Part shown: positions 17,481 to 61,218 of the stretch, piece after piece
Layout of the letters: each line of letters opens with the position of its first letter
Numbering within the stretch: position 1 is the stretch's first letter
Sequence record: MT446412.1
Length of the DNA: 64,000 bases
Strand: one strand, 5' to 3'
From: Escherichia virus TH41
Made by a program: the position numbers and the translations under genes
The notes under the pieces: model-generated
What the model was told of the DNA's origin: nothing
Database searches by the model: none
Seen by the model: only the letters and a program-made list of their open reading frames with translations

Positions 17481-17780
17481 ATGAAAACGTATCAAGAATT
17501 TATCACAGAAGCCAAAGCTCCTAAAGCATTTCAAATCGGAGTCCAGGGCAATTTAGACCAACAATATGTTGATGCTATTGTCGCAAGCCTCGGTAAACAA
17601 GGTGTACAAGTGGATTTGGTTGATTTTACTAAAGGTAATACTTTTAATATTGTCGCATCTAAAGGTTCTTTAGCTAAAGTTAAAAAGGCCTTTGGCGTAG
17701 CACAAGCATATGAAATTGACCATTCTGAATTAGAAAATAAAGGTCGCCAGAACACAATTAAAGGCTCTGGTTCTTTTTAA
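17481..17780 (+). CDS. capsid-targeted internal protein
   Basis: MKTYQEFITEAKAP... Confidence 0.6.
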   Translation: MKTYQEFITEAKAPKAFQIGVQGNLDQQYVDAIVASLGKQGVQVDLVDFTKGNTFNIVASKGSLAKVKKAFGVAQAYEIDHSELENKGRQNTIKGSGSF

Positions 17781-17941
17781 TAAAGGCAAACCGACCCTCT
17801 CCTCATGAACTTCGTGTCCTCTGAGTGATGGACCTTTCCCTACCTGTAATAAGGTCGAGCCCGAGTGCGGTAAGGGGTTTACATTCGGATACATGGACGA
17901 ATTAATGTGCCAAGGAATGGCCCCACAACTAAGAGACAACT

Positions 17942-18469
17942 ATGAAATTTTTAACTCCCATTTATCTAACTTTAATGCACGCCTTCGCTGAACGCGCCAT
18001 TGAACGCTTAGATTCAGACCAATACACCTGGTATGAACCCGCTTCAAGAATGCAAGAGTTTGGTACCCTTAGACTTGACGGTGGAAGACAAACAGGTAAA
18101 ACAAGTGCCATTGCGCAGTTCGCGGCGGATTGGGTTTCTAAAGGTAATGATGTGATTGTTATGTCGAGTTCTTCGCATCGCTCACGAGAAATCTGTAATA
18201 TAATAAAGCGGGTGTCTAAGGCACAACCACATCTTAATGTTGAACGACCTGGATTCGTTGTCTATGATACTGTACGCAGTTTCCTTGATGAAGATAATTT
18301 TCATAAGTACCGTGGATTGCGTTTTACGCGTCTTTTAATCATTATTGAAGAACCTATTCGCCTCCCTGCAATGGATAAGTTCTATGAAGCTTATCAGGTA
18401 ATGATGAATAAATTTATGTGTCAAGGTGATAAGCCTTTGCCACTGTTCTTTGTGATAGGAATGCAATGA
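17942..18469 (+). CDS. small P-loop NTPase-like protein
   Basis: Walker A GGRQTGKTS and Walker B-like LLIIIEEP. Confidence 0.5.
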   Translation: MKFLTPIYLTLMHAFAERAIERLDSDQYTWYEPASRMQEFGTLRLDGGRQTGKTSAIAQFAADWVSKGNDVIVMSSSSHRSREICNIIKRVSKAQPHLNVERPGFVVYDTVRSFLDEDNFHKYRGLRFTRLLIIIEEPIRLPAMDKFYEAYQVMMNKFMCQGDKPLPLFFVIGMQ

Positions 18470-18765
18470 TGACCCATGAAGAGCTTTTTGACCAAATCTA
18501 TTTTATTCCAAAAGTTAGGTCTGAAGATTTCGTAAAGAATTTTGAAATCTTTAATAAAGCAAATTTCTTTGAGTATGTGTTTTTGTCTGGACCTTTTATT
18601 GGGTCCAGATTTCGTTGCACTGCTCCGAGTATTCGCTTGATGAAGTTGGTTCCTTACTTTACTCTGGAATTTATTTCTGGACCGTGTAAGGGTATTATCA
18701 CTCGTAGCCTCCTGACCTATGACCAGGATGTGCGATTAATTAGTGACTGGAAAAAATATGTCTAA
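18466..18765 (+). CDS. hypothetical protein
   Basis: 99 aa, ATGA overlap. Confidence 0.45.
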   Translation: MMTHEELFDQIYFIPKVRSEDFVKNFEIFNKANFFEYVFLSGPFIGSRFRCTAPSIRLMKLVPYFTLEFISGPCKGIITRSLLTYDQDVRLISDWKKYV

Positions 18766-18972
18766 ATTGACAATTGAAGGCTCTGATGAAGCTCTGAAAA
18801 GATTTGTTGAATGGTTTAATGGACCAGGTGAACAAGACTTTCTGGAAGTCTGGGATGGCGGTCGGTGGAATGGTAAAGAAATGATTTACCCGACTACCTA
18901 TATCTCCGTGCAAGGTTGGACTGAAGGCCTTCGTTTGGTAGAATATGATATCGCAACTGGCGAGGAAGTGAA

Positions 18973-18976
<4 letters not shown>
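18758..18976 (+). CDS. hypothetical protein
   Basis: 72 aa; start overlaps previous gene. Confidence 0.45.
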
Positions 18977-19556
<580 letters not shown>

Positions 19557-19612
19557 TGTACAAGCAGATTGAAATGAGTTATGATTATCCCATCAAACAA
19601 AAGGAGATAATC

Positions 19613-20071
19613 ATGACTACTATCGATTCAAGTGTTTACATTCGCCGCAATAAACTTCGTCGCATTTTTGAAACGGAGTTCCTCAAAATTAATAATGCTA
19701 TCAACAAGGCTTGTAAAGAAGCAGGCCTTGAGGCATTCTTCATTAAGTACAGTCCACATCTGTTGGACCGTGCAATCCAACGTGAAATTGATGAACAATA
19801 TGTTTTTGACTTGTTTGGAAAAATCACACCACATGTAAAAGAAATCGTTGAATTCTTGGAGATGAAACCGCTCCCGGAAGTTGAAGCACAAATTGACCCG
19901 AATATGAACTACCGTCCACTTCGTCTGGAAATTACAGACAAGAACCTGTGGTTAGGAATGACAGTTAACCCAGCTCTTCCTGGGAAGTCTCCGACCATGT
20001 GTTGTCGTATGGCGTTTGTTAACTCTAATCGTCTGGAAGGAAAAATTAGCACAAAAGTGATTTATATCTAA
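19613..20071 (+). CDS. regB: RegB site-specific endoribonuclease
   Basis: VYIRRNKLRR.FE.EF..INN...HLLDRAIQREIDE.YVF.LF...CRMA closely matches T4 RegB; AAGGAG RBS. Confidence 0.9.
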   Translation: MTTIDSSVYIRRNKLRRIFETEFLKINNAINKACKEAGLEAFFIKYSPHLLDRAIQREIDEQYVFDLFGKITPHVKEIVEFLEMKPLPEVEAQIDPNMNYRPLRLEITDKNLWLGMTVNPALPGKSPTMCCRMAFVNSNRLEGKISTKVIYI

Positions 20072-20081
20072 TGGGGAATTC

Positions 20082-20624
20082 ATGAAAAAAGTAATCGCCA
20101 CCTTACTATTGACAGTTAGTATGTCTGCCCATAGCGTAGAGCCTACTTTCAGTAATGAACAAATGGAAAACCTCCAATATGCTTATGCGTTTGGAGAACA
20201 GTTCCAGAAAAATGGTAAGTACAAAGAAAATCCGCACCAACATAATGGTTTGGGATATATCATGGCTGGTTTAACCTGGCAGGAGAGTTCTGCTGGGATT
20301 AATACTGGATTAAATAAAGATAAGCATCATGCATATGGTATATTCCAAAATTATCTTCCAACCGTGCGCGAACGTGTGAAACAGGTTGGGTGGACAATGA
20401 CAGATAAAGAAATAATCAAGATGATAAGCAAGAGAGAGAACAGTGCACGCTGGGCTTACATTGAGCTTTCATACTGGTTGAATATTCATAAGGGGGATAT
20501 AAGGAAAACACTATCATCATATAACGCAGGATGGAATGTGAAAGCTGGTAATACGTATGCTTCACAGGTCCTAGAAAAAGCTAACTACTTAAAATCACGA
20601 GGCCTATTAAAAACGGTGGATTAA
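20082..20624 (+). CDS. secreted lytic-transglycosylase-like protein
   Basis: Signal peptide; SLT-like WQESS...AYGIFQ motif. Confidence 0.5.
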   Translation: MKKVIATLLLTVSMSAHSVEPTFSNEQMENLQYAYAFGEQFQKNGKYKENPHQHNGLGYIMAGLTWQESSAGINTGLNKDKHHAYGIFQNYLPTVRERVKQVGWTMTDKEIIKMISKRENSARWAYIELSYWLNIHKGDIRKTLSSYNAGWNVKAGNTYASQVLEKANYLKSRGLLKTVD

Positions 20625-20626
20625 AA

Positions 20627-20986
20627 ATGGTAAGAGTTATAACTTTAGCCATAGGGTTAGTATTCAGCATGGGAGGAATAGCTTCAGTACAGAGCGACGA
20701 CAACAACAGCATCATAGAATATGCAACGAGGACGGCTAAAGATTATTGCGCCGCAAGCAATGTGGATTGTATAATCCAGTTCAGCGCCAAGCTCACCGCG
20801 GCATATAAAGATGGTCAAAATGATGTTGAACATACACTTTTGAAAAAGAATGTATTATCCAACAAATATGAAAAGAAATTATTTGAAATGGATTGCATTC
20901 TGTCAAGTGCAAAATATAAGGCGGCCTGCACCAGTATGGTTGACAGGTTAGTGGATTCATATAATAGAGGATTGAACTCTAAATGA
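20627..20986 (+). CDS. secreted hypothetical protein
   Basis: N-terminal signal-like hydrophobic segment; 119 aa. Confidence 0.45.
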   Translation: MVRVITLAIGLVFSMGGIASVQSDDNNSIIEYATRTAKDYCAASNVDCIIQFSAKLTAAYKDGQNDVEHTLLKKNVLSNKYEKKLFEMDCILSSAKYKAACTSMVDRLVDSYNRGLNSK

Positions 20987-21462
20987 TTACCCAGTATATT
21001 AAGGGCGATATCGTCGCCCTCTTTCTTCAAGGCAATATTATTGCACATGGTTGTAACTGCTTTCACACAATGGGTTCTGGTGTAGCTGGACAGTTGGCGA
21101 AGGCTTATCCAAAAGTTTTAGAAATAGATAAAACCACTACTGAATATGGTTCTCGTGATAAATTAGGCGATATGTCTATTGTTTTTAAACATAAGCCGAC
21201 AGGTTTTGGCATGTGCTATAACTTGTATACACAATACGAGCCAGGCCCTAATCTTGATTATGGCGCTTTAGTAAATTGTATGATAGAATTAAATCTACAA
21301 GCAGAAACCCTTTTGTTTAAACCGGTAATTTATATTCCACGTATTGGTTGTGGTATTGCAGGTGGAGATTGGGAAAAGGTTTCTAAATTAATCGACATGT
21401 TTACTCCTGATATTGATTTAATAGTGGTGGATTATGAAAGCACATTACCCACATCCGTTTGA
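20983..21462 (+). CDS. macro-domain protein (ADP-ribose binding/processing)
   Basis: GDIV...NIIAHGCNCF...GSGVAGQL and ...IPRIGCGIAGGDW resemble the macro-domain Gly-rich signature. Confidence 0.5.
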   Translation: MITQYIKGDIVALFLQGNIIAHGCNCFHTMGSGVAGQLAKAYPKVLEIDKTTTEYGSRDKLGDMSIVFKHKPTGFGMCYNLYTQYEPGPNLDYGALVNCMIELNLQAETLLFKPVIYIPRIGCGIAGGDWEKVSKLIDMFTPDIDLIVVDYESTLPTSV

Positions 21463-21646
21463 CCCTAAAAACAAAGCGGAAATTATTCGACGCTGGACCG
21501 AAACTCGAGTAACCAAATGTCCTATAAAAAGTCAACACAACACTGATAAATGGTATATCGGTGAATATGTTGAATATACTTTTATAGATAAAAATAAACG
21601 TAAACAGCACGTAGAAGAATATTGCCTAAAGGTACAATGGTTATGA
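21434..21646 (+). CDS. hypothetical protein
   Basis: 70 aa overlapping upstream gene end. Confidence 0.4.
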   Translation: MKAHYPHPFDPKNKAEIIRRWTETRVTKCPIKSQHNTDKWYIGEYVEYTFIDKNKRKQHVEEYCLKVQWL

Positions 21647-21849
21647 GCCAAGCCCGAATTCTTAAAACGGCCAAATGTGAAAAATGTGAATGGCCGGTAA
21701 TCGCAGCTTTGTGCAACGATGAAATGAATTGCGAATACGATTACTGGTGGTACTGTTCTAATAAAGGATGTTCTAATCATAAGGGTGAAGGTTTTCATTC
21801 TGGTTATTGCGAACATCCTAAATTTGTGCGATATGGGGAACCGAAATGA
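21643..21849 (+). CDS. Cys-rich small protein (putative zinc-binding)
   Basis: CEKCEW...CNDEMNCEYDYWWYCSNKGCSNH...C. Confidence 0.45.
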   Translation: MSQARILKTAKCEKCEWPVIAALCNDEMNCEYDYWWYCSNKGCSNHKGEGFHSGYCEHPKFVRYGEPK

Positions 21850-22031
21850 GTTTAAGCATTAGTCAGAAAAGTAGATTATTTGAGCTTATCCATGAGCTTT
21901 TGGATGAGCATACAGAAGCAAACGCCTTTTATGATGAATACGGCCCAATAGATGCCGAACATCAGGAAGAATTTGCCAATCGATTTGATGCGAAAGAAAA
22001 CGAATTAATAGCTTATGTGAATACGCTTTAA
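21846..22031 (+). CDS. small acidic hypothetical protein
   Basis: 61 aa. Confidence 0.4.
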   Translation: MSLSISQKSRLFELIHELLDEHTEANAFYDEYGPIDAEHQEEFANRFDAKENELIAYVNTL

Positions 22032-22040
22032 GAAGGTGAT

Positions 22041-22613
22041 ATGGCGAGTTTAATTTATCATTACGCAGCAATGAATGCAGGCAAAACAGCTTCATTGCTG
22101 ACTGCAGCTTATTCCTATAAAGAGCGTGGAATGAGTGTGCTTTTGCTAAAACCTGTTATTGATAATCGGGACTCGGAAGGCGAAATTAAATCACGCATCG
22201 GTATTAGCCAGGAAGCAAACCTGGTAACGGCCGACATGAACCTGTTTGAATTCTATAAATGGGCCGAGTCTCAAAAGGATATCCATTGTGTCCTGGTCGA
22301 TGAAGCTCAATTTTTGTTACCAGAGCAAATTGACCAGTTAGCTCAAGTGGTTGATAATTACAATATCCCCGTTATGTGTTACGGGTTAAGAACAGATTTT
22401 CGGGGTCAATTATTTCCCGGTTCGGCCAGACTTCTGGCTATTTCGGATAAACTGGTTGAATTAAAGGGCGTCTGTCATTGCGGCCGGAAAGCAACCATGA
22501 CCGCTCGAGTAATCGACGGTGCTGCTGTAAAGGACGGCGAGCAAGTATTGGTCGGTGGGAATGAATCGTACGTATCTTTGTGCAGAAAACATTGGCTCGA
22601 ATTAACAAGCTGA
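22041..22613 (+). CDS. tk: thymidine kinase
   Basis: MASLIYHYAAMNAGKTASLL...VDEAQF...CHCGRKA matches T4 Tk. Confidence 0.95.
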   Translation: MASLIYHYAAMNAGKTASLLTAAYSYKERGMSVLLLKPVIDNRDSEGEIKSRIGISQEANLVTADMNLFEFYKWAESQKDIHCVLVDEAQFLLPEQIDQLAQVVDNYNIPVMCYGLRTDFRGQLFPGSARLLAISDKLVELKGVCHCGRKATMTARVIDGAAVKDGEQVLVGGNESYVSLCRKHWLELTS

Positions 22614-22620
22614 GGTTCGC

Positions 22621-22896
22621 ATGGTATACAAGGTTTGGACGTATATCTCTATTTTGATATTCCTGGTTTTGGTTTTTGTTCCTATGCAACAGGACCAGGA
22701 AAGGTATGAGCGCGAAGTCGAAATCGTTGCAAGTACCTATCACTCGTTCAACAAAGAGTGCCCCAATAAAAACGGAATAAGCCTGCAACAAGCATACTAT
22801 TTGTCAACGGTCACCAGTCCAAAACAACGGGTCTGGGTTGAACGTAATTTTGCAGGTTTATTTTCAGAGTACTGCTTTAATTTTAAACGTCTATAA
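22621..22896 (+). CDS. small membrane protein
   Basis: N-terminal TM helix; 91 aa. Confidence 0.45.
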   Translation: MVYKVWTYISILIFLVLVFVPMQQDQERYEREVEIVASTYHSFNKECPNKNGISLQQAYYLSTVTSPKQRVWVERNFAGLFSEYCFNFKRL

Positions 22897-22899
22897 ATA
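22892..22899 (+). promoter_or_regulatory. late promoter TATAAATA (MotA-box TGCTTTA lies 12 nt upstream)
   Basis: Exact TATAAATA upstream of rI; TGCTTTAA at 22874-22881. Confidence 0.5.
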
Positions 22900-22968
22900 C
22901 AGTTACTAACTAGTATTCCGCTATGTTAAGGCTGCAAAGCGTAATCATGACCAACAATAGGAGTCCTT

Positions 22969-23262
22969 ATGGACCTTATTCGAGGACTTTCATTAAGTCT
23001 AATAATCCTGGGCTGTTTAGGTCCAAATCTGTCCTCTGCAACAGATGGGAAGTTTACCCAATATGCAGATAGTGCGATGAAGATTTATTCGCAATTCAAA
23101 GAACCAAGCGTGCACCAATCCGAACAGTTCTGGGCGTTTATCAAGACTGAATGGAACAACAAAAGCCAATGCGAAACTGAAATTACCTGCAAAAGCGATG
23201 GTAAAGCTGCGGCGAGAGAGTACGCTAAATTAATGAAGGTAAAATTGGAAGATGAAATTTGA
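22969..23262 (+). CDS. rI: lysis inhibition regulator RI (antiholin)
   Basis: 97 aa with N-terminal signal-anchor; SEQFWAFIK and AREYAKLMKVKLEDE match T4 RI; adjacent to tk. Confidence 0.75.
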   Translation: MDLIRGLSLSLIILGCLGPNLSSATDGKFTQYADSAMKIYSQFKEPSVHQSEQFWAFIKTEWNNKSQCETEITCKSDGKAAAREYAKLMKVKLEDEI

Positions 23263-23635
23263 TGATTTCGTAACGGGTCGTGGGTCTGAGGTGGATTCAT
23301 ATATTGGGTGGTTGTTAGTCTCTTTGGCTTATTTTAAGTCCGCCCATCTTGAAACCAAAAGTTACGCCCGCCATAAAGCTTATGATTTCTACTTCACAGA
23401 AATCCAAGGTCCACTCGACCAGTTCAGTGAGCAATGGTTAGGTTACAGCGGGAAACAATACAAAGCTGCATTACCGTCCGCCTCGGACTTGCCGAAAGAT
23501 ACAATTTTGTTTTTAGATGAAATGATTAAAAGCTCGGAAAGAGTCTATAAAGTTGTACCCAAGGCTATTCAATCGACTCTGGACGATATCGTTGGAGTTT
23601 TCTTTCAGACTAAGTATCTGTTAACATTAGAGTAA
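23252..23635 (+). CDS. hypothetical protein (rI.1 position)
   Basis: 127 aa. Confidence 0.45.
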   Translation: MKFDDFVTGRGSEVDSYIGWLLVSLAYFKSAHLETKSYARHKAYDFYFTEIQGPLDQFSEQWLGYSGKQYKAALPSASDLPKDTILFLDEMIKSSERVYKVVPKAIQSTLDDIVGVFFQTKYLLTLE

Positions 23636-23639
23636 TTCA

Positions 23640-23668
23640 AAAGGTCTGCCTTCGGGTGGACCTTTTTT
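23640..23668 (+). terminator. Rho-independent terminator
   Basis: AAGGTC-loop-GACCTT followed by TTTTTT. Confidence 0.65.
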
Positions 23669-23677
23669 CATTTAGGG

Positions 23678-23707
23678 GTTTACATCACCATAAAAAGGGT
23701 GTACTAT
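23678..23707 (+). promoter_or_regulatory. early promoter
   Basis: GTTTAC-18 nt-TACTAT followed by TATCCCATCAACTACTGAGGAG 5'UTR cassette. Confidence 0.5.
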
Positions 23708-23735
23708 TATCCCATCAACTACTGAGGAGAACACA

Positions 23736-23939
23736 ATGAGAATTAAAAATATCAAGATTGATGCAGTTAATACTGGTGATGAGGTTGTTATCTATCTTAA
23801 TGATTATGCAATCTTTATGGACAGTGCCACTGATGAAGAAGTGGTTGAACTCTTACAGAAAGCTCCATTTGAACTGTGTGAAGAAGATGCTACCCATCTT
23901 TCATCAGCAATTTTCTCATTATCATATGTGGTGGAATAA
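23736..23939 (+). CDS. small acidic hypothetical protein
   Basis: 67 aa. Confidence 0.45.
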   Translation: MRIKNIKIDAVNTGDEVVIYLNDYAIFMDSATDEEVVELLQKAPFELCEEDATHLSSAIFSLSYVVE

Positions 23940-24175
23940 TGAAACTTACAAATACCATGGTTTCATTGGAATATGAAACCAATAATCATATTCTTGAAAT
24001 TAAGATATTTGATGATGGAAGCATATTTGCTGATTACCGCGGATATAGAATCCGCCTGGAAAAGGATGAGCTCAAGGAACCATGGCTCCTTAAAGACACC
24101 TTAAAGGGCTGTGGGTGTAAACTGAAGACTACTCAAGTCCAAGAATTAATTTCTACCATCAAAAAATACTGGTGA
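23939..24175 (+). CDS. hypothetical protein
   Basis: 78 aa. Confidence 0.45.
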   Translation: MKLTNTMVSLEYETNNHILEIKIFDDGSIFADYRGYRIRLEKDELKEPWLLKDTLKGCGCKLKTTQVQELISTIKKYW

Positions 24176-24179
24176 TATT

Positions 24180-24362
24180 ATGTTAACTACTGAACAGATT
24201 GAACAAATCCTTAAACTCGCATGGCATATTGAAAATGCTGCTAATGACCTGGCTGTTGAATATTGTGAAGGTTATTCATATTCTGGAATAGAGCAGTGCA
24301 AGCGTGATTTGGCTAACTCTAAAGCAGCATTGGTTGGGTATCTGAATGAGTTGAAAGAATAA
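24180..24362 (+). CDS. hypothetical protein
   Basis: 60 aa. Confidence 0.4.
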   Translation: MLTTEQIEQILKLAWHIENAANDLAVEYCEGYSYSGIEQCKRDLANSKAALVGYLNELKE

Positions 24363-24619
24363 TGGCTGTTGGATTTGCAAAAGATGGTGCTGAACAGTTA
24401 GAGATGGAAGCGGTTGTCCAGGCCGCTATCACCCATGCGAGAGCACAAGTTGCAGTTGAAAGGGAGTCTGCTGAATTCTGTTTTGACTGCGACGAAAAAA
24501 TTCCTGAAGCGCGGAGACAAGCGATTAAAGGCGTGATATATTGTGTTGGTTGTCAATCAATGCATGATGAAATTTTTAAACGTGAGCCAAGAAACTGTTG
24601 GCATAGGAGCATGAGATGA
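24362..24619 (+). CDS. C4 zinc-finger protein (DksA/TraR-like)
   Basis: CFDCDEKIPEARRQAIKGVIYCVGCQ = CxxC-x17-CxxC. Confidence 0.55.
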   Translation: MAVGFAKDGAEQLEMEAVVQAAITHARAQVAVERESAEFCFDCDEKIPEARRQAIKGVIYCVGCQSMHDEIFKREPRNCWHRSMR

Positions 24620-24710
24620 TTTACTATCTTGAACCTTGGGCTTGGTTAACAATGGCTGTAGGGCCTGTTTTAATTGGTTTATTCTTTTCATGGTTAGCGA
24701 GGAAACTGTA

Positions 24711-24926
24711 ATGTTATATGACCCAAGTGGTAATTCTGAAAATGGTGTGATTGTTCTGGAGCCTGAGCATCCAGTTGGTGACGTATACCGCCCAGTTGAA
24801 GTGTGCGAATGTAATTTTGTTAAAGGTAATACTGGTGGGATTTCCATTGAGCAAGATGATGATGTTATTTACCTGGATGCAAGCCAAGTAGAAGCGCTTT
24901 ATAGTATTTTAAAACATAACCGTTGA
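24711..24926 (+). CDS. hypothetical protein
   Basis: ATG 24711 after GAGGAAA RBS; 71 aa. Confidence 0.4.
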   Translation: MLYDPSGNSENGVIVLEPEHPVGDVYRPVEVCECNFVKGNTGGISIEQDDDVIYLDASQVEALYSILKHNR

Positions 24927-24936
24927 GGAACAGAAA

Positions 24937-25497
24937 ATGATTATTGAAACAACTGAATTGTTTGGCGAACTGACCGCTGAAGTAGTTAATAACGCAATTG
25001 AGCTTTGTCAAGAAGACGATAAAATCGTACTAACTATCCAAGATATCAAACCACTTTACGATTTAAAGGTTTTGGACAGACACGATTATCTTAATGGTCG
25101 TGCTAGTGCTTCTGTTGATATCAATGATGATATGTATGCCTATATCTATAAAAATGAAAACGGGTTTAATCTGGAAAATGGTATTGAATGTCTGAGCATC
25201 AGCGATTCTGATAAATTCTTTGATTGTATTTTCAAACTCTTCCAGGAAGAATGCAAGCCGGAAGTTGAATGGAAAGTCCCGGGCCAGGATGCGGTGATTC
25301 GTTCTAGTGAAACCTTTGAGGGTGACGAAGAAGAACTGAATTATGATACCGAATTAACCGTGTATCAACATCAGGGTCGTGATTTGCTATCCTTGACCCA
25401 GACCCACGACGGTTTTAATGAAGTGGTATTTACTAAAGACGAGCTAAAAGTTTTAGTCTCTTATCTGAACTCTGTTATCCCAACTATGAACTCTTAA
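24937..25497 (+). CDS. acidic hypothetical protein
   Basis: 186 aa. Confidence 0.5.
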   Translation: MIIETTELFGELTAEVVNNAIELCQEDDKIVLTIQDIKPLYDLKVLDRHDYLNGRASASVDINDDMYAYIYKNENGFNLENGIECLSISDSDKFFDCIFKLFQEECKPEVEWKVPGQDAVIRSSETFEGDEEELNYDTELTVYQHQGRDLLSLTQTHDGFNEVVFTKDELKVLVSYLNSVIPTMNS

Positions 25498-25507
25498 GGA
25501 AAATATT

Positions 25508-25960
25508 ATGATTATCAATGCAAACTCTTGGCACGCTCGCTTCCATGACCGTTTTTATGACCGTCATTCTCGTCCACACTCATTGTGTGCTTACTTTTGG
25601 AAAATGGTTTGGGCTTGTTTTGTTTGTGCCATTTTTATCGGTAGTATGGTTTTTGGATTAACTGTCGCTGGGGCTGGTGTATTAGAGCATTTCTTTGTAT
25701 TAAGTACCCCGGTTGGTTTAGGTTTAGGGTTTATTTTAGGACTAGCTACACTGGCTCTTATTCTGGCGGTAGCATTTGGTTTAATGTATGGTCTAATGAA
25801 TTTATGGTCCTGGTATGATTTACGTAAAGAAGAAAAGGAATGGCAACGTATTCTAGCCAAACGTGAAGGAAAGGAAACTAAAGAAAACATCGTTATTCAA
25901 TACATTAAAGCTCGTAAATCTAAGATGTGTCCTGTAATCCACTTCGAGGACAAAAAATGA
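25508..25960 (+). CDS. membrane protein
   Basis: Two or three hydrophobic helices; 150 aa. Confidence 0.5.
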   Translation: MIINANSWHARFHDRFYDRHSRPHSLCAYFWKMVWACFVCAIFIGSMVFGLTVAGAGVLEHFFVLSTPVGLGLGFILGLATLALILAVAFGLMYGLMNLWSWYDLRKEEKEWQRILAKREGKETKENIVIQYIKARKSKMCPVIHFEDKK

Positions 25961-26967
25961 GAACAGTTATGAAAGGCTACTTCGGTAGCCACCTTTATGG
26001 AACAAGTACTCCTGAATCTGATGTTGATTTTAAAGAAATCTTTGTTCCTCATCCGCGAGATATCCTGCTCGGAACCGCGATGAACCATACCAACCTGAAC
26101 ACGAATAATACGGCTACCAAAAATACAAAAGATGATGTTGACCATGAACTTTATAGTCTGAAATATTTCTTTAAACTGGCGGCCGAAGGCGAAACCGTTG
26201 CTCTGGACATGATTCACACGCCGGCTGACCTGGTTGTCAAATCCGATTTACCAGATGTATGGAAGTTTATCCAGGATAACCGTTCACGGTTCTATACAAC
26301 TAACATGAAAGCCTATTTGGGGTATGTCCGTAAGCAAGCTTCCAAATATGGTGTTAAAGGTTCACGATTGGCCGCTCTACGTGGTGCACTGACAATCATT
26401 AACCAGATTCCTGAACAGTGGGTCGACTATCAAGAAGATGGTTCGACTAAGCAACGTCGAACTAAGGTAGAAGATATCAAACACCGGCTTCCAGAGAATG
26501 AATTCTGCGAATGGGTATTTCATAACCACGAGAAAACAGGTCCTCAAACGTTCTATACTGTTCTTGGACGTAAGTACCAAACAACGTTATCAATTACAGA
26601 GCTCAAGCAATCTCTGAATAAACTCGATGCCGAATATGGTGAACGTGCTCGTAAGGCAGAAGCCAATGAAGGTATTGACTGGAAAGCTCTGAGCCATGCT
26701 TATCGTGCTGGATACCAGTTGAAGGAAATCTATCAAACTGGTGACCTGGTTTATCCGCTCAAAAACGCTTCTATTATTAAAGCAATCAAAGCTGGCGATA
26801 TGCCTTTCAAAGTAGTCCAAGGCCTGTTGGAAAATACTGTCGATGAAGTCGAAGTCCTGGCTATCCAGGCCCATAAGAACGGTATGCCTGAGAAGGTAGA
26901 CATGAAGTTCTGGGACAAGTTCGTTGAAGAGGTATACCTTGACAACCACAATTCCTATTATCGTTAA
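25957..26967 (+). CDS. predicted nucleotidyltransferase (Pol-beta superfamily)
   Basis: YFGSHLYGTSTPESDVDF = hG[GS]-x9-13-DhD NTase signature; ATGA overlap start. Confidence 0.6.
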   Translation: MRTVMKGYFGSHLYGTSTPESDVDFKEIFVPHPRDILLGTAMNHTNLNTNNTATKNTKDDVDHELYSLKYFFKLAAEGETVALDMIHTPADLVVKSDLPDVWKFIQDNRSRFYTTNMKAYLGYVRKQASKYGVKGSRLAALRGALTIINQIPEQWVDYQEDGSTKQRRTKVEDIKHRLPENEFCEWVFHNHEKTGPQTFYTVLGRKYQTTLSITELKQSLNKLDAEYGERARKAEANEGIDWKALSHAYRAGYQLKEIYQTGDLVYPLKNASIIKAIKAGDMPFKVVQGLLENTVDEVEVLAIQAHKNGMPEKVDMKFWDKFVEEVYLDNHNSYYR

Positions 26968-26970
26968 ATT

Positions 26971-26999
26971 CTAAGGAACCCTTCGGGGTCCTTTTTTAT
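26971..26999 (+). terminator. Rho-independent terminator
   Basis: GGAACCC-TTCG-GGGTCC then TTTTTT. Confidence 0.65.
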
Positions 27000-27010
27000 T
27001 TTAAAAAGTA

Positions 27011-27040
27011 GTGTACAACCAGATGGTCATGAGGCATAAT
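27011..27040 (+). promoter_or_regulatory. early promoter
   Basis: GTGTAC-18 nt-CATAAT. Confidence 0.5.
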
Positions 27041-27081
27041 GATTCCATACTGAGTTAACAAATAAACAAACGGAGAATAAA

Positions 27082-27288
27082 ATGTTAGAATTAATCAAAG
27101 CTGCTGGTGAAAAAGGTCTGATGGTTAACACTCGTGACCCAGAACAACGTCAAGCATTTGGTGAGTTAAAAGCCAAAGGTCTGGTTAAAGCATCCCTTGG
27201 TATTGGTAATGCTTTGCGTGTGACTTTGACCCCTGCAGGTAAAGCAATGTTCTTCCCTAAACCATTACCAAAACGTCGTCGCAAGTGA
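27082..27288 (+). CDS. small basic protein, possible DNA-binding
   Basis: 68 aa with basic C-terminus PKRRRK. Confidence 0.45.
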   Translation: MLELIKAAGEKGLMVNTRDPEQRQAFGELKAKGLVKASLGIGNALRVTLTPAGKAMFFPKPLPKRRRK

Positions 27289-27294
27289 GGAATT

Positions 27295-27597
27295 ATGAAA
27301 AAGTATGAACTTGACATGATTGAGGCATGTCTGAAATCTGCTGACCATTTTAAGTTGAAAATGCACAAGTTAAGAGGAATGGTCAAAACTTCAGAAGAGA
27401 AGAAGCGATATGCTCTGAAGGAGAAATGTAAAGCTCTTATCATGATGGATAAGCTGCAAATGGTCGCCGCAGAAGCTCACAGGACACGTAAGGCTGAGGC
27501 CCTTGGTGTTTATATGGCAGAGCAGCTTCATCGTGCCCAGCAAGCCGTTAAGAGCGTCTGGTTCAGCGGTGAAAATACTGAAAGAACTTTTAATTAA
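27295..27597 (+). CDS. hypothetical protein
   Basis: 100 aa. Confidence 0.45.
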   Translation: MKKYELDMIEACLKSADHFKLKMHKLRGMVKTSEEKKRYALKEKCKALIMMDKLQMVAAEAHRTRKAEALGVYMAEQLHRAQQAVKSVWFSGENTERTFN

Positions 27598-27599
27598 AT

Positions 27600-27629
27600 G
27601 TGTACATAGTATGGGGATAGACGTATAAT
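27600..27629 (+). promoter_or_regulatory. early promoter
   Basis: GTGTAC-18 nt-TATAAT inside inverted repeat GGGGATAG/..TTCCCAT. Confidence 0.5.
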
Positions 27630-27665
27630 GTTCCCATACTGAGTTACCAAATACTGGAGAATAAA

Positions 27666-28190
27666 ATGGAAGCCAAATCAATCTTTAATCTGATTAATTA
27701 CAATAATGGTAATTTTAAATCAGAAGCACAAAGTAAGTTCTTTAATGATGTTGCTTGTGCAGGCGAGATTACAGTATCAGGTGGTCAGACTTATAAAAAC
27801 GCCTGGAACTGGATTGTGACTGTTGATTCAGTTGGTATTGTTGATGTGTATAAAAACACCAACAAAAACCGCTCTTTGTTCTGGTCAAGAGAGACTAATG
27901 CAGAATATCAAGCGGCAAGAGCAAAGAAAAATATGCCTACTGAATCTGATGTACAAAACATCAAATCAGATATCCAATATTATGATGGTCTGATTGCTGA
28001 ACAACAAGCAGTGCTTGATAAGTTCAATGAAATCAAAGCATGTAAAGAGATTCCTGAATTCATGCGGGAATCAGTTAATGAACAATACAATCTCACTTCA
28101 GAGCGTATTGAAACCTATACCAAACAAAGAGCAGAGCGCCAGGTACTCCTTCAGAAGTTTGAAGAGCGTTTAAAGACGGTTCTCGCATAA
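27666..28190 (+). CDS. hypothetical protein
   Basis: 174 aa. Confidence 0.5.
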   Translation: MEAKSIFNLINYNNGNFKSEAQSKFFNDVACAGEITVSGGQTYKNAWNWIVTVDSVGIVDVYKNTNKNRSLFWSRETNAEYQAARAKKNMPTESDVQNIKSDIQYYDGLIAEQQAVLDKFNEIKACKEIPEFMRESVNEQYNLTSERIETYTKQRAERQVLLQKFEERLKTVLA

Positions 28191-28192
28191 AC

Positions 28193-28216
28193 GCTTTATA
28201 CCAAGGATGGTATAAT
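28193..28216 (+). promoter_or_regulatory. candidate MotA-dependent middle promoter
   Basis: GCTTTATA box, 12-nt spacer, TATAAT. Confidence 0.45.
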
Positions 28217-28253
28217 GGTTCTGACCTTTGATTAATCTATTGAGGAAATTATT

Positions 28254-29105
28254 ATGTCACAAGCAATTAATGAAATTCGTTCTGAAGTTAAAAACGCTGT
28301 TAAATTCACAGGACGTATTCCAAGCACTAAAGATGTGGTTTTAAATGTTCTGTATATGATGTGGAATAAGTTCAATGTTTGTACTAATTCTGCTGAATTC
28401 ACTAAAATCTTTGAAAAGACCAAAGGCCTTCTTACATTAGAAGACCGAGTCATGAAATCTCTTCATCGTTCGGGTATGTTGTCTCGCGCTAATGCCAAAA
28501 TTATTCTTAAAAAATATAACAAAGGTTACGACCTTTATGGTCGTGCGATTAGCACCATGACGTTTGATGAAGTGGTTAAAGACCTTTGGAAGAACCAACG
28601 CCGTTTGCTGGCGCTTGGTGCGCGTCTTGCGAGTGGTCAAGATAAACAAATGACCTTTAAAACCAATAATTCTTTAGATTATAAACTATTTAATGTTATT
28701 AAAGGTCAAAATGAAGGTGAATACAGTATTTCTTCTTTTAGTGGATGTCAATACGAAAACTGGAAATTCCATCTTCGTTTGGCGTTGTCTGTACTGGAAT
28801 GTCATGGTGTTCTTACCTTTTATGATGTTCAAACTGGAGGCGTCCAGCGTATTAAATTATGTCAAATTAAAGACCAAGTTGAAGTCGAGAGTCCTTCAGA
28901 ACAAGCTCCTAAAATGGAACCTGTTCCAGTGCGAAGCAATGAAAAATATTCAGAGCAAATTGAGCTTTTCACTAAACAGATTGAAGAACTTAACATCACC
29001 ATCCAGCAACAAGATGATGAAATTTTCCGCCTGACAGGATTGAACAGTGCAGCGAAAGCTGAACGTCAGAAACTGATGAACGTTATTGAATTACTTAAGG
29101 ATTAA
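28254..29105 (+). CDS. hypothetical protein with C-terminal coiled coil
   Basis: 283 aa. Confidence 0.55.
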   Translation: MSQAINEIRSEVKNAVKFTGRIPSTKDVVLNVLYMMWNKFNVCTNSAEFTKIFEKTKGLLTLEDRVMKSLHRSGMLSRANAKIILKKYNKGYDLYGRAISTMTFDEVVKDLWKNQRRLLALGARLASGQDKQMTFKTNNSLDYKLFNVIKGQNEGEYSISSFSGCQYENWKFHLRLALSVLECHGVLTFYDVQTGGVQRIKLCQIKDQVEVESPSEQAPKMEPVPVRSNEKYSEQIELFTKQIEELNITIQQQDDEIFRLTGLNSAAKAERQKLMNVIELLKD

Positions 29106-29189
29106 TAATGGAATGGCTTGCTGTTCTTGGTTATGTAATTGCCGCCACAGGTATTCTGTGGCTTATATTCTCAAATATTGTAGGTTAAT

Positions 29190-29405
29190 ATGGAAATCGT
29201 AGGTTTTATTCTCCTTTACTTTGTGCTAGGATTCATGACGACCATTATCATTCATAAATCGGGTGATTGGAATCCAATCGAAATTGAATCAAGCTATGAC
29301 GCAGTATTCATTACACTAGTATGGCCTCTGCTTTGGTTTGTTTGGGCAATTATGATGGTGTTTTGGCCTATTGCTAAATTCTATGAAAAATTATTTGGAC
29401 TATGA
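29190..29405 (+). CDS. small membrane protein
   Basis: 71 aa, two TM helices. Confidence 0.45.
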   Translation: MEIVGFILLYFVLGFMTTIIIHKSGDWNPIEIESSYDAVFITLVWPLLWFVWAIMMVFWPIAKFYEKLFGL

Positions 29406-29406
29406 T

Positions 29407-30288
29407 ATGAAAATTAAAACACGTAAAGAATATTCTCGATTTGAACAGCGTGAAGGACGTGCAACCCGTCTTATCGCGATGAATTCTCTGGTTAACTTTG
29501 GCAAAATTAAATCAGGTTCTGCCACCCAGGGTTATGGCCAACGTATTGTAAGAATTAACTCTCTGAATGATTACTGCCGCCGCCCGGCGTTTTTGTTTGG
29601 TGCTACGGTTCGTAAGAGCATCAAGGAACTCCTGGCAGCTGGACTTCGTATTCGTAAAGCTCCGGTTAACATCAAGAACTATAATTTCAATTCCAGTAAC
29701 TTGATTATCAATATCAAGAATGATGGCGTGCAGATTAAGTTCAAGCCAACCACCAAGGGCGATGTTGCTCTTTGTGATACCTTTAAAGAGGTTATGGGTA
29801 TTGCACTGTTTTATATGCGTTATGCCGTTGAAGCATACACGTTTGAAGAAGATACAAATTATATCCATCAAACAGAAAAATTCCTTAAAACTATAGTCAT
29901 TGATATTAAATTAACTAAAGAATATCTTTTGTCTTATGCTCCTTATCAAGAGAAAAAGGAACCAGAAATGGCGGAACGTATCCCTACTGCATCATATGGT
30001 CCAGCATTTGCGGGTCAGTTTAAATCTTATGACCAGGCTAAAATTTCGCCACTGGACGTTAAAAACATGTACAAATGGAAAGTCCAACCATCCAGCTCTC
30101 TTGAAATCTTTAACCCACCAATGAAGCCTATTGAGAGCTATCATGCTGATGCTATCCAGGAATCAGTTAACCGCTTAAATGGTCTGATTGAAGATGAGAA
30201 AAAGGGTATCCAGGATGTCCTGAATCGCATCAAGAACATGGAAACGCAACGCAATAAATTGCAAGCTGCAATCAAAGCATTAAAATAA
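29407..30288 (+). CDS. hypothetical protein with C-terminal coiled coil
   Basis: 293 aa from ATG 29407. Confidence 0.5.
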   Translation: MKIKTRKEYSRFEQREGRATRLIAMNSLVNFGKIKSGSATQGYGQRIVRINSLNDYCRRPAFLFGATVRKSIKELLAAGLRIRKAPVNIKNYNFNSSNLIINIKNDGVQIKFKPTTKGDVALCDTFKEVMGIALFYMRYAVEAYTFEEDTNYIHQTEKFLKTIVIDIKLTKEYLLSYAPYQEKKEPEMAERIPTASYGPAFAGQFKSYDQAKISPLDVKNMYKWKVQPSSSLEIFNPPMKPIESYHADAIQESVNRLNGLIEDEKKGIQDVLNRIKNMETQRNKLQAAIKALK

Positions 30289-56922: not shown

Positions 56923-57216
56923 ATGAAAAAGTTATTAATCGCAGCAATTCTTACCGTAGCATCATGTGGTACAGCCCCAGTTACTGCTGGGCTTGATAAA
57001 GACCTTTGTGAGTGGTCCATGACTGCGGACCAGACTGATGTTGAACACCAGATTTATGCTGACATCATGAACATTACTAAACGTGACCACCCAGATATGG
57101 TTAAAGAAGTATCTGACCAACTGGCTTCTGGTGACGTTATGCAGTATAACTATGTTCTGTATTGCGATGCTTCATTTGACAACAGCAAGATTGTTCAATG
57201 GGTTACAGGTGAATAA
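56923..57216 (+). CDS. sp: Spackle (periplasmic lysozyme inhibitor / superinfection exclusion)
   Basis: 97 aa, signal peptide, DKDLCEWSMTADQT.VE.QI.ADIMNI.KRD.P.M...V...L.SG.VMQYNYVLYCD matches T4 Sp. Confidence 0.75.
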   Translation: MKKLLIAAILTVASCGTAPVTAGLDKDLCEWSMTADQTDVEHQIYADIMNITKRDHPDMVKEVSDQLASGDVMQYNYVLYCDASFDNSKIVQWVTGE

Positions 57217-58627: not shown

Positions 58628-59656
58628 ATGTCATATATTGATAAAGAATTTGCGGTTAGAGCTTTATCGTATCAACCACGTTATAGAGAAGTCACCGGGA
58701 GCACATTTAAAGCAAACTGTCGTTGCAAGGTTTGTGGGGACTCCCAGAAAGATTCACACAAGGCTCGATTCTGGGCGTATACTAATCCGGCTGATGGCGC
58801 GGTTTACGTGAAATGTTTTAACTGTGACTACTCCACGCATATAAGCAAATACATAAAAGAGTTTGAGCCGGATTTACACTGGGAATATATGGTTGAGAAG
58901 TATAAGGAGAATGCCTTTGGCAGACAACGTAATGAAGTTGCCGAAACTCCGAAAGAACCAGAAAAAACTCCGGTTATCGAAGAGCTTGCTTTTTGTGAAA
59001 GACTCGATACTTTACCAGAAGCGCATCCTATAATTAAGTATGTAAAAAGTCGGTGTATTCCTAGCAATGTTTGGAACCGGTTATGGTTTACAAACAAATG
59101 GCCTGCATTAGTTAACTCCGTTAATCCTGGGACGTATAAGAATGAAACGAATGAACCACGCTTGGTTATTCCTATCTTCAACGGCAAAAAAGAAATCGAA
59201 TCTTTCCAAGGACGAGCTCTTCGCAAAGATGCACCACAAAAATATATCACAATCAAAGCTCACCCAGAAGCTTCCAAAGTCTATGGTGTAGACAAGATTG
59301 ATGAGCGCAAGCGCGTGTGGGTAATGGAAGGTCCGATTGATAGTTTGTTTATCCCTAACAGCATTGCGATAACTGGTGGAACATTGTCATTGGAAGCCGT
59401 TCCTTATCCAGAAACCAGAGTATGGGTAATGGACAACGAACCAAGACATCCGGATACGATTAAACGTATGAAGAAGCTCGTTGAAGCTGGCGAAGCTGTT
59501 ATGTTCTGGGACAATGCACCATGGCATACGAAAGACATAAATGAGATGGTTAAATCAGAAGGAGCAACCCCTGAACAAATCGAATCATATATGGCTGATA
59601 ACGTTGCCCAAGGATTGATGGCGAGAATGCGACTTTCGAAGTACGCAAAAGTTTAG
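58628..59656 (+). CDS. 61: DNA primase gp61
   Basis: Zinc ribbon C.C.VCGDS..D..KAR.W.Y and C-terminal GPIDSLFI.N.IAITGG...VW..DNEPRHPDTIKRM.KLV.AGE.VMFWD match T4 gp61. Confidence 0.95.
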   Translation: MSYIDKEFAVRALSYQPRYREVTGSTFKANCRCKVCGDSQKDSHKARFWAYTNPADGAVYVKCFNCDYSTHISKYIKEFEPDLHWEYMVEKYKENAFGRQRNEVAETPKEPEKTPVIEELAFCERLDTLPEAHPIIKYVKSRCIPSNVWNRLWFTNKWPALVNSVNPGTYKNETNEPRLVIPIFNGKKEIESFQGRALRKDAPQKYITIKAHPEASKVYGVDKIDERKRVWVMEGPIDSLFIPNSIAITGGTLSLEAVPYPETRVWVMDNEPRHPDTIKRMKKLVEAGEAVMFWDNAPWHTKDINEMVKSEGATPEQIESYMADNVAQGLMARMRLSKYAKV

Positions 59657-59853
59657 GAAGGGATTCCGGTAAAGTAACCAATAATAGAATGGATATGTTC
59701 CATTGTGACCTGAGGTAAGTGCACCCCTTGTGTTGCGGCGATGGGTACAACCAGTAAGTTCCACAGGAAAACATCAAGAGCTAAAAAGCCCATGATGAGC
59801 TTCTTGTCTTTCTTACTGGTTAATTTCCAAATCTGATAGAATAATGTTCCCAT
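59653..59853 (-). CDS. small membrane protein (antisense to neighbours)
   Basis: 66 aa, hydrophobic core LALDVFLWNLLVVPIAATQGV; GGTGG RBS on minus strand. Confidence 0.5.
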   Translation of the reverse strand: MGTLFYQIWKLTSKKDKKLIMGFLALDVFLWNLLVVPIAATQGVHLPQVTMEHIHSIIGYFTGIPS

Positions 59854-59861
59854 AGTTCCAC

Positions 59862-60059
59862 CTATATAAGGCCGATTAATGCCAGTGAAACATCTACAAC
59901 TGATTCGAGCGCGACGACTGGTAATATAACACCATGTGCCAATGCAATAGGGGCAACAATGAAATTCCAGAGTAGAACTAAACAGAGTACCGAAAGGACC
60001 AGAATCGTTCGCTTACGACTGCCTTTGATGGCTTGAATTAGACTAGATAGTTTTAGCAT
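59862..60059 (-). CDS. small membrane protein, paralog of 59653..59853
   Basis: 65 aa; LVLLWNFIVAPIALAHGV; AAGGAGG RBS 5 nt upstream on minus strand. Confidence 0.55.
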   Translation of the reverse strand: MLKLSSLIQAIKGSRKRTILVLSVLCLVLLWNFIVAPIALAHGVILPVVALESVVDVSLALIGLI

Positions 60060-60081
60060 ACATCCTCCTTTCTTGTATTTA

Positions 60082-60106
60082 TGCTTTAAACCAATACGAT
60101 ATAATT
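60082..60106 (+). promoter_or_regulatory. candidate MotA-dependent middle promoter for gene 56
   Basis: TGCTTTA box, 12-nt spacer, TATAAT. Confidence 0.45.
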
Positions 60107-60143
60107 AACATACAAACAACATGAATTGATAAGGAAAAATATA

Positions 60144-60662
60144 ATGGCACATTTTAACGAATGTTCTCAACTGATTGCTGGTGTTGATAAAGCTCAAGGC
60201 GCTTATGATAATGCAATTTTTGAAGGCACTGACCCACTGCAAATTATGCTTGATATGCAGAAATCGTTGCAGGTTCGTCTGGCTAAAGAAAAACCAGAAT
60301 ATAACGAACATCCTGATAACCTGGCGACTGCTGGTGAAGTTGTTACCTGGCTCCGCAACCAGAAAGATTATATTGATGATGAATTCCGTGAACTGATTAC
60401 TGCATTAGGTGGCATGTCCAATGGCGAGAAAGCTGCCTCGGCCGTATGGAAGCCTTGGAAAGCACAACATGGCGAAATGCAGCAAACCCTAATTAATGAT
60501 TTATCTCCTGAAGACCAGCTCGAAATTAAATTTGAGATGATTGATATCCTGCACTTTGTTCTGAATATGTTCCATGGCCTTGGACTGACTGCAGAAGAAA
60601 TCTTTAAATTGTATTACCTGAAAAATGCTGAGAACTTTGCTCGTCAAGACCGAGGTTATTAA
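60144..60662 (+). CDS. 56: dCTPase/dUTPase gp56
   Basis: MAHFNEC..LI.GVDKAQ...DPLQ.MLDMQ..LQ.RLA...IDDEFREL...SPEDQLEIKFE..DI.HFVLNMF.GLG..AEEIFKLYYLKN.ENFARQD.GY matches T4 gp56. Confidence 0.9.
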   Translation: MAHFNECSQLIAGVDKAQGAYDNAIFEGTDPLQIMLDMQKSLQVRLAKEKPEYNEHPDNLATAGEVVTWLRNQKDYIDDEFRELITALGGMSNGEKAASAVWKPWKAQHGEMQQTLINDLSPEDQLEIKFEMIDILHFVLNMFHGLGLTAEEIFKLYYLKNAENFARQDRGY

Positions 60663-60945: not shown

Positions 60946-60953
60946 TATAAATA
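60946..60953 (+). promoter_or_regulatory. late promoter TATAAATA for soc
   Basis: Exact TATAAATA about 30 nt upstream of soc start. Confidence 0.55.
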
Positions 60954-60984: not shown

Positions 60985-61218
60985 ATGGGTGGTTTCGTTA
61001 ATATCAAAACCTTTACGCATCCAGCTGGTGAAGGTAAAGAAGTTAAAGGTGTTGAAGTATCTGTTCCGTTTGAAATCTATTCAAATGAGCACCGTATTGC
61101 CAATGCTCATTATCAGACTTTTCCTTCCGAAAAGGCCGCTTATGTCACCGTAGCGTCTAGTGCAGCTGATTGGCGAACTAAGAACGCGGCGATGTTTACG
61201 CCTACCCCAGTAGTTTAA
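60985..61218 (+). CDS. soc: small outer capsid protein Soc
   Basis: VNIKTF...HYQTFPSEKAAY.TV matches T4 Soc. Confidence 0.8.
   Translation: MGGFVNIKTFTHPAGEGKEVKGVEVSVPFEIYSNEHRIANAHYQTFPSEKAAYVTVASSAADWRTKNAAMFTPTPVV

Follow-up and report, generated by a model that had tools for sequence, protein, structure and literature searches.

Between the primase gene 61 and the dCTPase gene 56 of Escherichia virus TH41, in a stretch of 64,000 nucleotides of record MT446412.1 that is referred to here as the window, two small genes, orfB and orfA, lie on the minus strand at 59653..60059. To judge from their conservation they are almost certainly genuine protein-coding genes of the Dam.1 family, and the best explanation of the pair as a whole, to which we would give a probability of about 0.4, is that it may supply a late membrane accessory of lysis related to the core of a group of phage holins. 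The window is classified as Gaprivervirus (Straboviridae, Tevenvirinae), and over this region its identity is 98.7% with Escherichia phage UPEC01 and 97.5% with VR20. Earlier records list the genes as hypothetical proteins; the new findings are the anatomy of the whole family, its conserved late-promoter-like box, a tandem of two subtypes that is losing one copy and the candidate relationship to holins. The initial annotation of the window had described two paralogous small membrane proteins encoded against the prevailing orientation of the genes, with strong ribosome-binding sites and a promoter-like box ahead of the first of them, and this description is borne out by what follows. Its suggestion of late-expressed membrane genes is probably right as well.

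Both proteins match PHROG 2024, a family without assigned function, over their full length (phrog_2024; E 6e-28 for orfA and 1.8e-26 for orfB), and their other PHROG matches were few, weak and all to function-unknown families. They are 28% identical overall and 50% identical over a core of 24 residues, for which BLASTP gave an E of 2e-7, and both carry the invariant motif W-N-x4-P-x-A-x3-G-x2-(L)P behind a basic N-terminus. Between orfA and its Marfa orthologue there are 15, 5 and 41 differences at codon positions 1, 2 and 3, with proteins that are 80% identical, and the orthologues of Kosakonia phage 305 and PEi20 differ at 2, 4 and 22 of these positions. The identity of orfA to the Bp7 and Marfa orthologues is 75-80% and the synonymous sites are saturated. 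The ratio of nonsynonymous to synonymous substitution rates (dN/dS) was 0.05-0.36 in most orthologue pairs and 0.60-0.64 in two very close pairs that are separated by 6-11 substitutions; for orfB it was 0.15-0.36 against most orthologues and 0.64 in the closest pair, with 11 substitutions only. The codon-position signature and the dN/dS values therefore rule out an open reading frame (ORF) that is incidental to an antisense RNA. A late antisense RNA could otherwise have been the functional product, pairing with read-through transcripts of 61-56 and lowering the amount of primase and dCTPase mRNA, since transcription from the late box would oppose the early 61-56 transcript and converge on gene 61. 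Strong purifying selection on the amino acids while synonymous sites are saturated, the invariance of motifs, start codons and Shine-Dalgarno sequences across genera, and the existence of distant homologues in unrelated genomic contexts make this scarcely credible, and the reading in which only the RNA matters was rejected on the dN/dS results.

The family is narrow. A word-indexed protein search returned close T4-like relatives only, and an exhaustive search with a profile hidden Markov model of 1.84 billion cluster representatives (50% identity) gave 18 matches, all of 50-82 aa with the exception of P0096, a spurious repeat protein outside this range. A Foldseek comparison with BFVD retrieved family members and weak helical matches only.

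Within T-even-type phages the gene is common. A tblastn search of phage records found 724 with orfB and 154 with orfA. T4 itself has a homologue of orfB (52% identity by tblastn) at AF158101.6 17747..17935, where it is unannotated, and the T4T record annotates the homologue as dam.1 (T4Tp032, ADJ39749.1), a gene of 66 aa that is antisense to genes 61 and dam. The initial annotation had contrasted the pair with T4, which has dam at this position. The presence of dam stands, but not that it takes the place of the pair: dam.1 is found beside gene 61 in T4, which therefore has dam in addition to, and not instead of, the homologue. As far as can be judged from these sequences, the pair is a duplicated or combined form of a gene common to T-even-type phages and no dam-replacing module. 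T4 Dam.1 is like orfB in length, in its antisense position, in its NATAAATA and GGAGG signals and in the invariant motif, and the 4-nt overlap of orfA with the stop of gene 61 in the window recurs in dam.1. They differ in that in T4 one B-type gene stands alone with dam behind it, whereas the window has a B-type and an A-type gene in tandem and no dam between 61 and 56. No function has been assigned to T4 Dam.1, which the T4 reference record AF158101 leaves out of its annotation. The antisense placement, convergent with gene 61, was found in Tequatro-, Mosig-, Gapriver-, Dhaka-, Jiaoda-, Kanagawa-, Gelderland-, Moon-, Mosuguk- and Marfavirus, and it persists in Bp7 in spite of a homing endonuclease inserted alongside.

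In the source records the family genes are called "hypothetical protein" or carry mislabels such as "DNA packaging ATPase", "dCTP pyrophosphatase" and, occasionally, "holin". The annotation of UPEC01 (MW233709.1) looks unreliable: it gives orfA as "DNA packaging ATPase", gp61.1 as "major capsid domain-containing protein" and small ORFs of the mod region as "molybdenum ABC transporter". The label "DNA packaging ATPase" has spread to the family records of SAKp28, MY02 and vB_YenM_P8.

The late-promoter-like box upstream of orfB is conserved across genera. In 13/13 representatives of at least ten genera, a NATAAATA box (variant ATTAAATA in two genera) stands 12-21 nt ahead of the ATG, and all 13 also keep a GGAGG-type Shine-Dalgarno before it. 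The box is CATAAATA in the window, SP18, JD18 and PEi20, TATAAATA in Bp7, Marfa, ZX14 and Kosakonia 305, GATAAATA in T4 and PM2, AATAAATA in HX01 and the variant ATTAAATA in Moon and CGG4-1. Of 50 T4 late promoter sites, 32 have the TATAAATA consensus without mismatch, position -13 (the first of the box) is the one most often varied, and late transcripts are possible in either polarity (PMC2988020). Because the box is conserved and T4 late promoters tolerate changes at -13, we infer with good support that the pair is transcribed late and in a gp55-dependent manner, and expression late in infection is highly probable. As only 8 nt separate orfB from orfA, the two can be taken as one transcription unit; there is no separate late box between them, and simple scans revealed neither a convincing terminator past orfA nor a better promoter. 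Literature searches on "dam.1" and on T4 ribosome profiling or antisense RNA sequencing found nothing relevant. A perfect TATAAATA was also seen on the plus strand at 60946-60953, 31 nt before a soc-like ORF (60985-61218; small outer capsid protein in UPEC01), so that a late promoter of the plus strand sits among the early genes, at a distance of 0.9 kb from orfA and orfB.

The timing of expression bears on superinfection exclusion, which the initial annotation had suggested. On this reading the proteins would act in exclusion or immunity by blocking the entry of DNA or the lysozyme of a secondary phage. They are small inner-membrane proteins by prediction, and the T4 exclusion gene sp lies about 2.5 kb upstream (window 56923..57216). 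Exclusion has to act early, which a promoter of late type does not suit; neither the PHROG and Pfam searches nor sequence similarity linked the proteins to Imm or Sp, and a copy is freely lost in sister phages, as described below. We consider this role improbable.

Table 1. The antisense pair, its expression signals and its flanking genes in the window.
Feature	Position	Strand	Length	Remarks
orfB	59862..60059	-	65 aa	B-type (T4-type) member of Dam.1 / phrog_2024
orfA	59653..59853	-	66 aa	A-type (Dhakavirus/Marfavirus-type) member of Dam.1 / phrog_2024; primase-proximal
CATAAATA late-promoter-like box	60076..60083	-		16 nt upstream of the orfB ATG; differs from the TATAAATA consensus at the first position only
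Shine-Dalgarno AAGGAGG of orfB	60064..60070	-		four nt before ATG 60059
Shine-Dalgarno GGTGG of orfA	59858..59862	-		four nt before ATG 59853; overlaps the orfB stop TAG 59864..59862
gene 61 primase	58628..59656	+		convergent neighbour; annotated as DNA primase in relatives
gene 56 dCTPase	60144..60662	+		divergent neighbour of orfB; annotation transferred from UPEC01; Pfam dUTPase_2 and PRA-PH matches

The features of the locus are collected in Table 1. The stops of orfA and of the primase gene overlap by 4 nt. For gene 56 the mechanical ORF (60126-60662, plus strand) begins at TTG 60126 and the annotated relatives start at ATG 60144; from the latter start, no more than about 84 nt separate gene 56 from the divergent orfB. 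The bias towards the plus strand is nearly total, with 120 ORFs of at least 60 aa on this strand and 9 on the minus strand by greedy selection. The remaining seven minus-strand ORFs gave the impression of shadow ORFs, their translations having been judged by eye and without searches, and orfA and orfB are therefore the sole minus-strand ORFs with independent support in the window.

The predicted proteins have a simple architecture. W31, N32, P37, G43 and P47 are invariant, and A39, L46 and V49 nearly so, in both family alignments (A1 and A2), and the loop is conserved as P-x-A-x3-G-x2-LP-x-V-x2-E/D. In an AlphaFold2 model of orfB, built from the family alignment, a short helix at the N-terminus is followed by a long one (14-41), a loop (42-50) and a last helix (51-62). 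Its mean predicted local distance difference test score (pLDDT) is 70.6, and the model is therefore usable for secondary structure only. The transmembrane (TM) segment has a mean Kyte-Doolittle hydropathy of 1.9-2.5. The mean counts over 46 members are 4.3 K/R and 1.6 D/E in the segment ahead of the TM helix and 0.4 K/R and 1.3 D/E in the C-terminal tail, the C-termini of orfA and orfB being without K or R. By the positive-inside rule this bias of charge indicates an N-in/C-out orientation, and an N-in/C-out membrane protein is very probably what each gene encodes. The mean hydropathy of the C-terminal helix is about 2.0-2.5 in the B-type proteins versus 0.3-1.2 in the A-type; that of orfB is hydrophobic, and that of orfA is amphipathic and histidine-rich. 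The B-type C-terminal helix could re-enter the membrane.

The connection with holins begins with distant members of the family. Two of them matched the holin family phrog_3427 (P0095, E 5e-4; P0094, E 2e-3), and sub-threshold matches to PF11351 (GTA_holin_3TM) were obtained for P0095 (E 0.03, 15.3 bits) and P0089 (E 0.1, 13.6 bits). PF11351 was the sole match of P0089 and the second one, behind MASE7, of P0095, and the phrog_3427 and PF11351 matches share one register, at profile positions of about 66-117. We built an alignment of PF11351 from IMG/VR loci (37-100% identity) and compared it by hhalign with the 46-sequence Dam.1 family. The score was 35.6 over 56 columns (Prob 86.5%, P 4.6e-6). 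Controls gave 11.8 with a reversed template, at most 17.7 in 30 full column shuffles, and at most 24.1 (mean about 12, standard deviation about 3) in 180 block shuffles that keep the local hydrophobicity. The same register was recovered with the T4-like members only (score 27.7, P 1.9e-4), with the B-type alone (21.2) and with the A-type alone (19.5).

The likeness extends to the order of features. PF11351 and phrog_3427 holins have, like the Dam.1 family, a basic stretch, a TM helix and an aromatic-polar-F motif (YQF/YNF in the holins, WNF in Dam.1), and then, in the same order, Pro, Gly, (L)P, an acidic residue, a small last helix and a terminal Gly. The PF11351 members examined were phage-encoded, and a bona fide member of both PF11351 and phrog_3427, the holin of phage DSL-LC05, adjoins a peptidase gene. 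In the gene transfer agent RcGTA, rcc00556 is presumably a PF11351 member, as the name of the Pfam family suggests. The rcc00555-rcc00556 locus is needed for lysis and for release of the gene transfer agent (PMC5026251; PMC3423380). TeaA of phage ICP1, a holin that is paired with an antiholin in lysis inhibition, has been assigned to PF11351 by remote homology (Hays and Seed, PMC7182436). ORF137 of ICP1 (NC_015157.1, 18728-19273, minus strand) is likely TeaA, and by eye its N-terminus resembles that of PF11351.

Several points weigh against a holin-related accessory of lysis. Neither orfA nor orfB reaches any Pfam or NCBIfam threshold, scans of the pair together with the 22 family members of alignment A2 against these databases gave nothing above noise, the PF11351 gathering cut-off of 24.8 bits was not reached by any of the matches, and orfA, orfB and the 22 A2 members gave no PF11351 match. 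The scores of the single subtypes, 19.5 for A and 21.2 for B, fall within the range of the block-shuffle controls, and TM-rich profiles are prone to false positives. The Dam.1 proteins have half the length of PF11351, being without its N-terminal 65 residues and its basic C-terminal tail, and are predicted to have one TM helix plus a helix of 12 residues, whereas PF11351 has three TM helices; they also lack the charged C-terminus typical of holins. The "holin" labels that family members carry in some records and in BFVD are unreferenced annotations. The candidate TeaA, ORF137, gave no PF11351 match by hmmscan (E <=0.1) or by single-sequence hhalign, and since hmmscan does not detect it, the published assignment of TeaA to PF11351 depends on more sensitive profile methods. 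In T4-like phages the family gene is not beside the endolysin, the holin gene t or the spanins, its neighbours being 61, 56 and dam, and T already supplies the holin function in these phages. As to the promoter, a box at -13..-6 puts the predicted start at about 60070, the first base of the Shine-Dalgarno; in JD18 the predicted start is inside the Shine-Dalgarno, and the spacing of 12-16 nt in some genera implies unusually short leaders. Given that the alignment of the full-family profile exceeds the controls and yet weakens in the subsets, we put common ancestry with the TM2-loop-TM3 core of PF11351 holins at about an even chance on this profile evidence.

Genomic context outside the T4-like phages provides a further line of evidence. 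Several of the most distant members, which still match phrog_2024 (E 1e-9 to 1e-11), are located in uncultivated, non-T4-like contigs. A recurrent gene order was found there: a large tail-tip protein, a protein with a TM helix and a coiled coil, endonuclease VII and the family member. The TM and coiled-coil protein (81-153 aa) has its TM helix at the N-terminus and weak matches to Rz-like spanins (E about 1e-3). Some of the contigs add conserved soluble proteins of 180 aa and 105 aa; for neighbours of 180 aa and 109 aa there was no informative match, only a weak one to "minor tail protein". A T4-type lysozyme was found 0.9-3.5 kb away in three of the five contig lineages (L017-L019, L021 and L023) and in a block of phage DCP80, and in L017-L019 and DCP80 it is just downstream on the same strand. 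No lysozyme was present within the examined stretches of L020 or L024/L025. In the lysozyme-bearing contigs there are few or no other small membrane proteins between the family member and the lysozyme, L023 having one of 62 aa. This context is suggestive of a late, lysis-associated role for the distant members, though it forms no canonical cassette.

Contigs L017, L020, L021, L023, L024 and L025, which have the 81-94-aa variant of the coiled-coil protein, carry, taken as a group, T4-like accessory genes (Cef, a SegE-type GIY-YIG protein and a T4-type lysozyme), although their tail tip is lambda-J-like. The block in Escherichia phage DCP80 (PQ671644.1, 140,978 bp, classed as Gaprivervirus) spans 17620-30129 and matches contig L017. 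It holds the tail tip, the TM and coiled-coil protein, endonuclease VII, an unannotated Dam.1-like ORF of 57 aa, ORFs of 183 aa and 99 aa and an endolysin, and the record is either that of a mosaic phage or a chimeric assembly.

The principal rival to a role in lysis timing is that these are small regulatory membrane proteins unrelated to lysis, of the kind of MgrB, SafA or AcrZ, which late in infection modulate a larger inner-membrane protein of host or phage, such as a protease, a transporter, a sensor or a membrane-bound site of prohead assembly or packaging. Proteins of 50-82 aa with a single TM helix would suit such a function, as would the clustering of W31, N32, P37, G43 and P47 in the outer half of the TM helix and the loop, where a binding interface could be formed, the small number of representatives in the profile search and the distance of the gene from the lysis genes in T4-like phages. 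Similarity to the PF11351 core profile in excess of the controls and the proximity of distant members to lysozyme and spanin-like genes are not accounted for in this way, and we regard a regulatory protein of this type as rather unlikely. Membrane toxins or counter-defence factors, for instance ones that neutralise a membrane-acting effector of abortive infection, are a quite improbable alternative. The proteins are small and hydrophobic, and one distant member is directly upstream of a gene with a RelA_SpoT domain, but late timing fits poorly and the synteny is stable, unlike the variable accessory regions in which anti-defence genes are typically found. That member is P0095 (59 aa), which lies 16 nt upstream of the 352-aa RelA_SpoT-domain gene within the interval 129-1383 of the short metagenomic contig L022.

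The two genes of the window represent two subtypes. A-type proteins have MGxxFYQIWKL as their N-terminus, and His and Ser abound in their C-terminal helix; Dhaka-, Marfa-, Gelderland- and Mosugukvirus, as well as one Kanagawavirus (ZX14), have this type as their only copy. B-type proteins share the motif xKLxxLxxAIKG, and their C-terminal helix, with two acidic residues, is very hydrophobic; this type is the only one in Tequatro- and Mosigvirus. Further single-copy variants, which match neither subtype, are found in Jiaoda-, Moon- and some Kanagawaviruses. A recent tandem duplication was rejected: the copies are only 28% identical and each is nearer to single-copy genes of other genera. From its sequences the B-then-A tandem looks like two old lineages that were retained or combined.

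One of the two copies is being lost. In SP18, orfA has a deletion of 97 nt exactly between two GTGGAACT direct repeats (window 59861..59854 and 59764..59757, minus strand), which takes out its ribosome-binding site and codons 1-29, and in EAWsc9 it has lost the start codon and has a 2-nt deletion and a longer internal deletion. Judging by these different lesions, orfA is decaying independently in the sister Gapriverviruses SP18 and EAWsc9. All four aligned Gaprivervirus genomes (4/4) have an intact orfB, and with orfA lost while orfB stays intact, one copy therefore appears to suffice. The viable T4 mutant clone T4_7t1 (OL964745.1, 2340-2620) has a dam.1 with a 4-nt deletion between Shine-Dalgarno and ATG and a 2-nt frameshift, weak evidence that dam.1 may be non-essential in the laboratory, a sequencing error being possible. 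In the same record dam is split into two coding sequences.

Taken together, a late accessory of lysis could work as follows. The B-type and A-type genes would be co-transcribed late by gp55-RNA polymerase from CATAAATA, antisense to the early block, and each product would be a small bitopic inner-membrane protein with its basic N-terminus in the cytoplasm and its conserved loop in the periplasm. The TM helix would carry the invariant W-N, and a short helix of hydrophobic (orfB) or amphipathic (orfA) character would form the C-terminus. The family would be a truncated relative of the PF11351 TM2-loop-TM3 core, and the proteins, as a non-essential holin-like accessory, would oligomerise in the inner membrane, or perturb it, late in infection and so modulate the timing of lysis alongside the canonical T holin. 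On present sequence evidence lysis timing is the most likely function but a tentative proposal, with odds below even. That the Dam.1 proteins are an overlooked component of lysis control in T-even phages is a more speculative and distinctly unlikely extension; they would be "core-only" relatives of holins that prime T or co-assemble with it, or a holin/antiholin pair where both subtypes coexist, and would set the timing of lysis or the stability of lysis inhibition.

For phage lysis and lysis inhibition the reference model is T4, and yet dam.1, a gene without assigned function that is conserved in hundreds of isolates and at least ten T-even-type genera, is missing from the T4 reference annotation. 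If the link to the holin core is true, the family is a candidate, open to direct test, for a second membrane component of lysis timing, shows that holins are reducible to a core of 50-65 aa and corrects the labels "DNA packaging ATPase", "dCTP pyrophosphatase" and "hypothetical"; if the lysis-control reading is true, Dam.1 would be a new conserved player in the best-studied system of phage lysis. If the link is false, orfA and orfB are ordinary genes of a family that is known but uncharacterised, and no replacement of dam.

The closest functional parallels are found among proteins of lysis control. The T4 holin T and antiholin RI are late-acting inner-membrane proteins with a single pass and an N-in/C-out orientation. 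The Dam.1 family shares with them its predicted late, N-in/C-out inner-membrane character, but not their sequence, with which it has no similarity, nor their PHROGs, which are different. T has 218 aa with a large periplasmic domain, and RI has a signal-anchor-release (SAR) domain and a globular periplasmic domain, unlike the Dam.1 proteins, which have only about 25 residues past the membrane. In size the nearest case is LidI of the satellite PLE, a TM protein of 66 aa that is expressed late and collapses the lysis inhibition of ICP1 without being the main holin (PMC7182436). The Dam.1 proteins are like LidI in size and TM nature, a likeness by description; LidI is encoded by a satellite and harms the phage, whereas the Dam.1 proteins are the phage's own.

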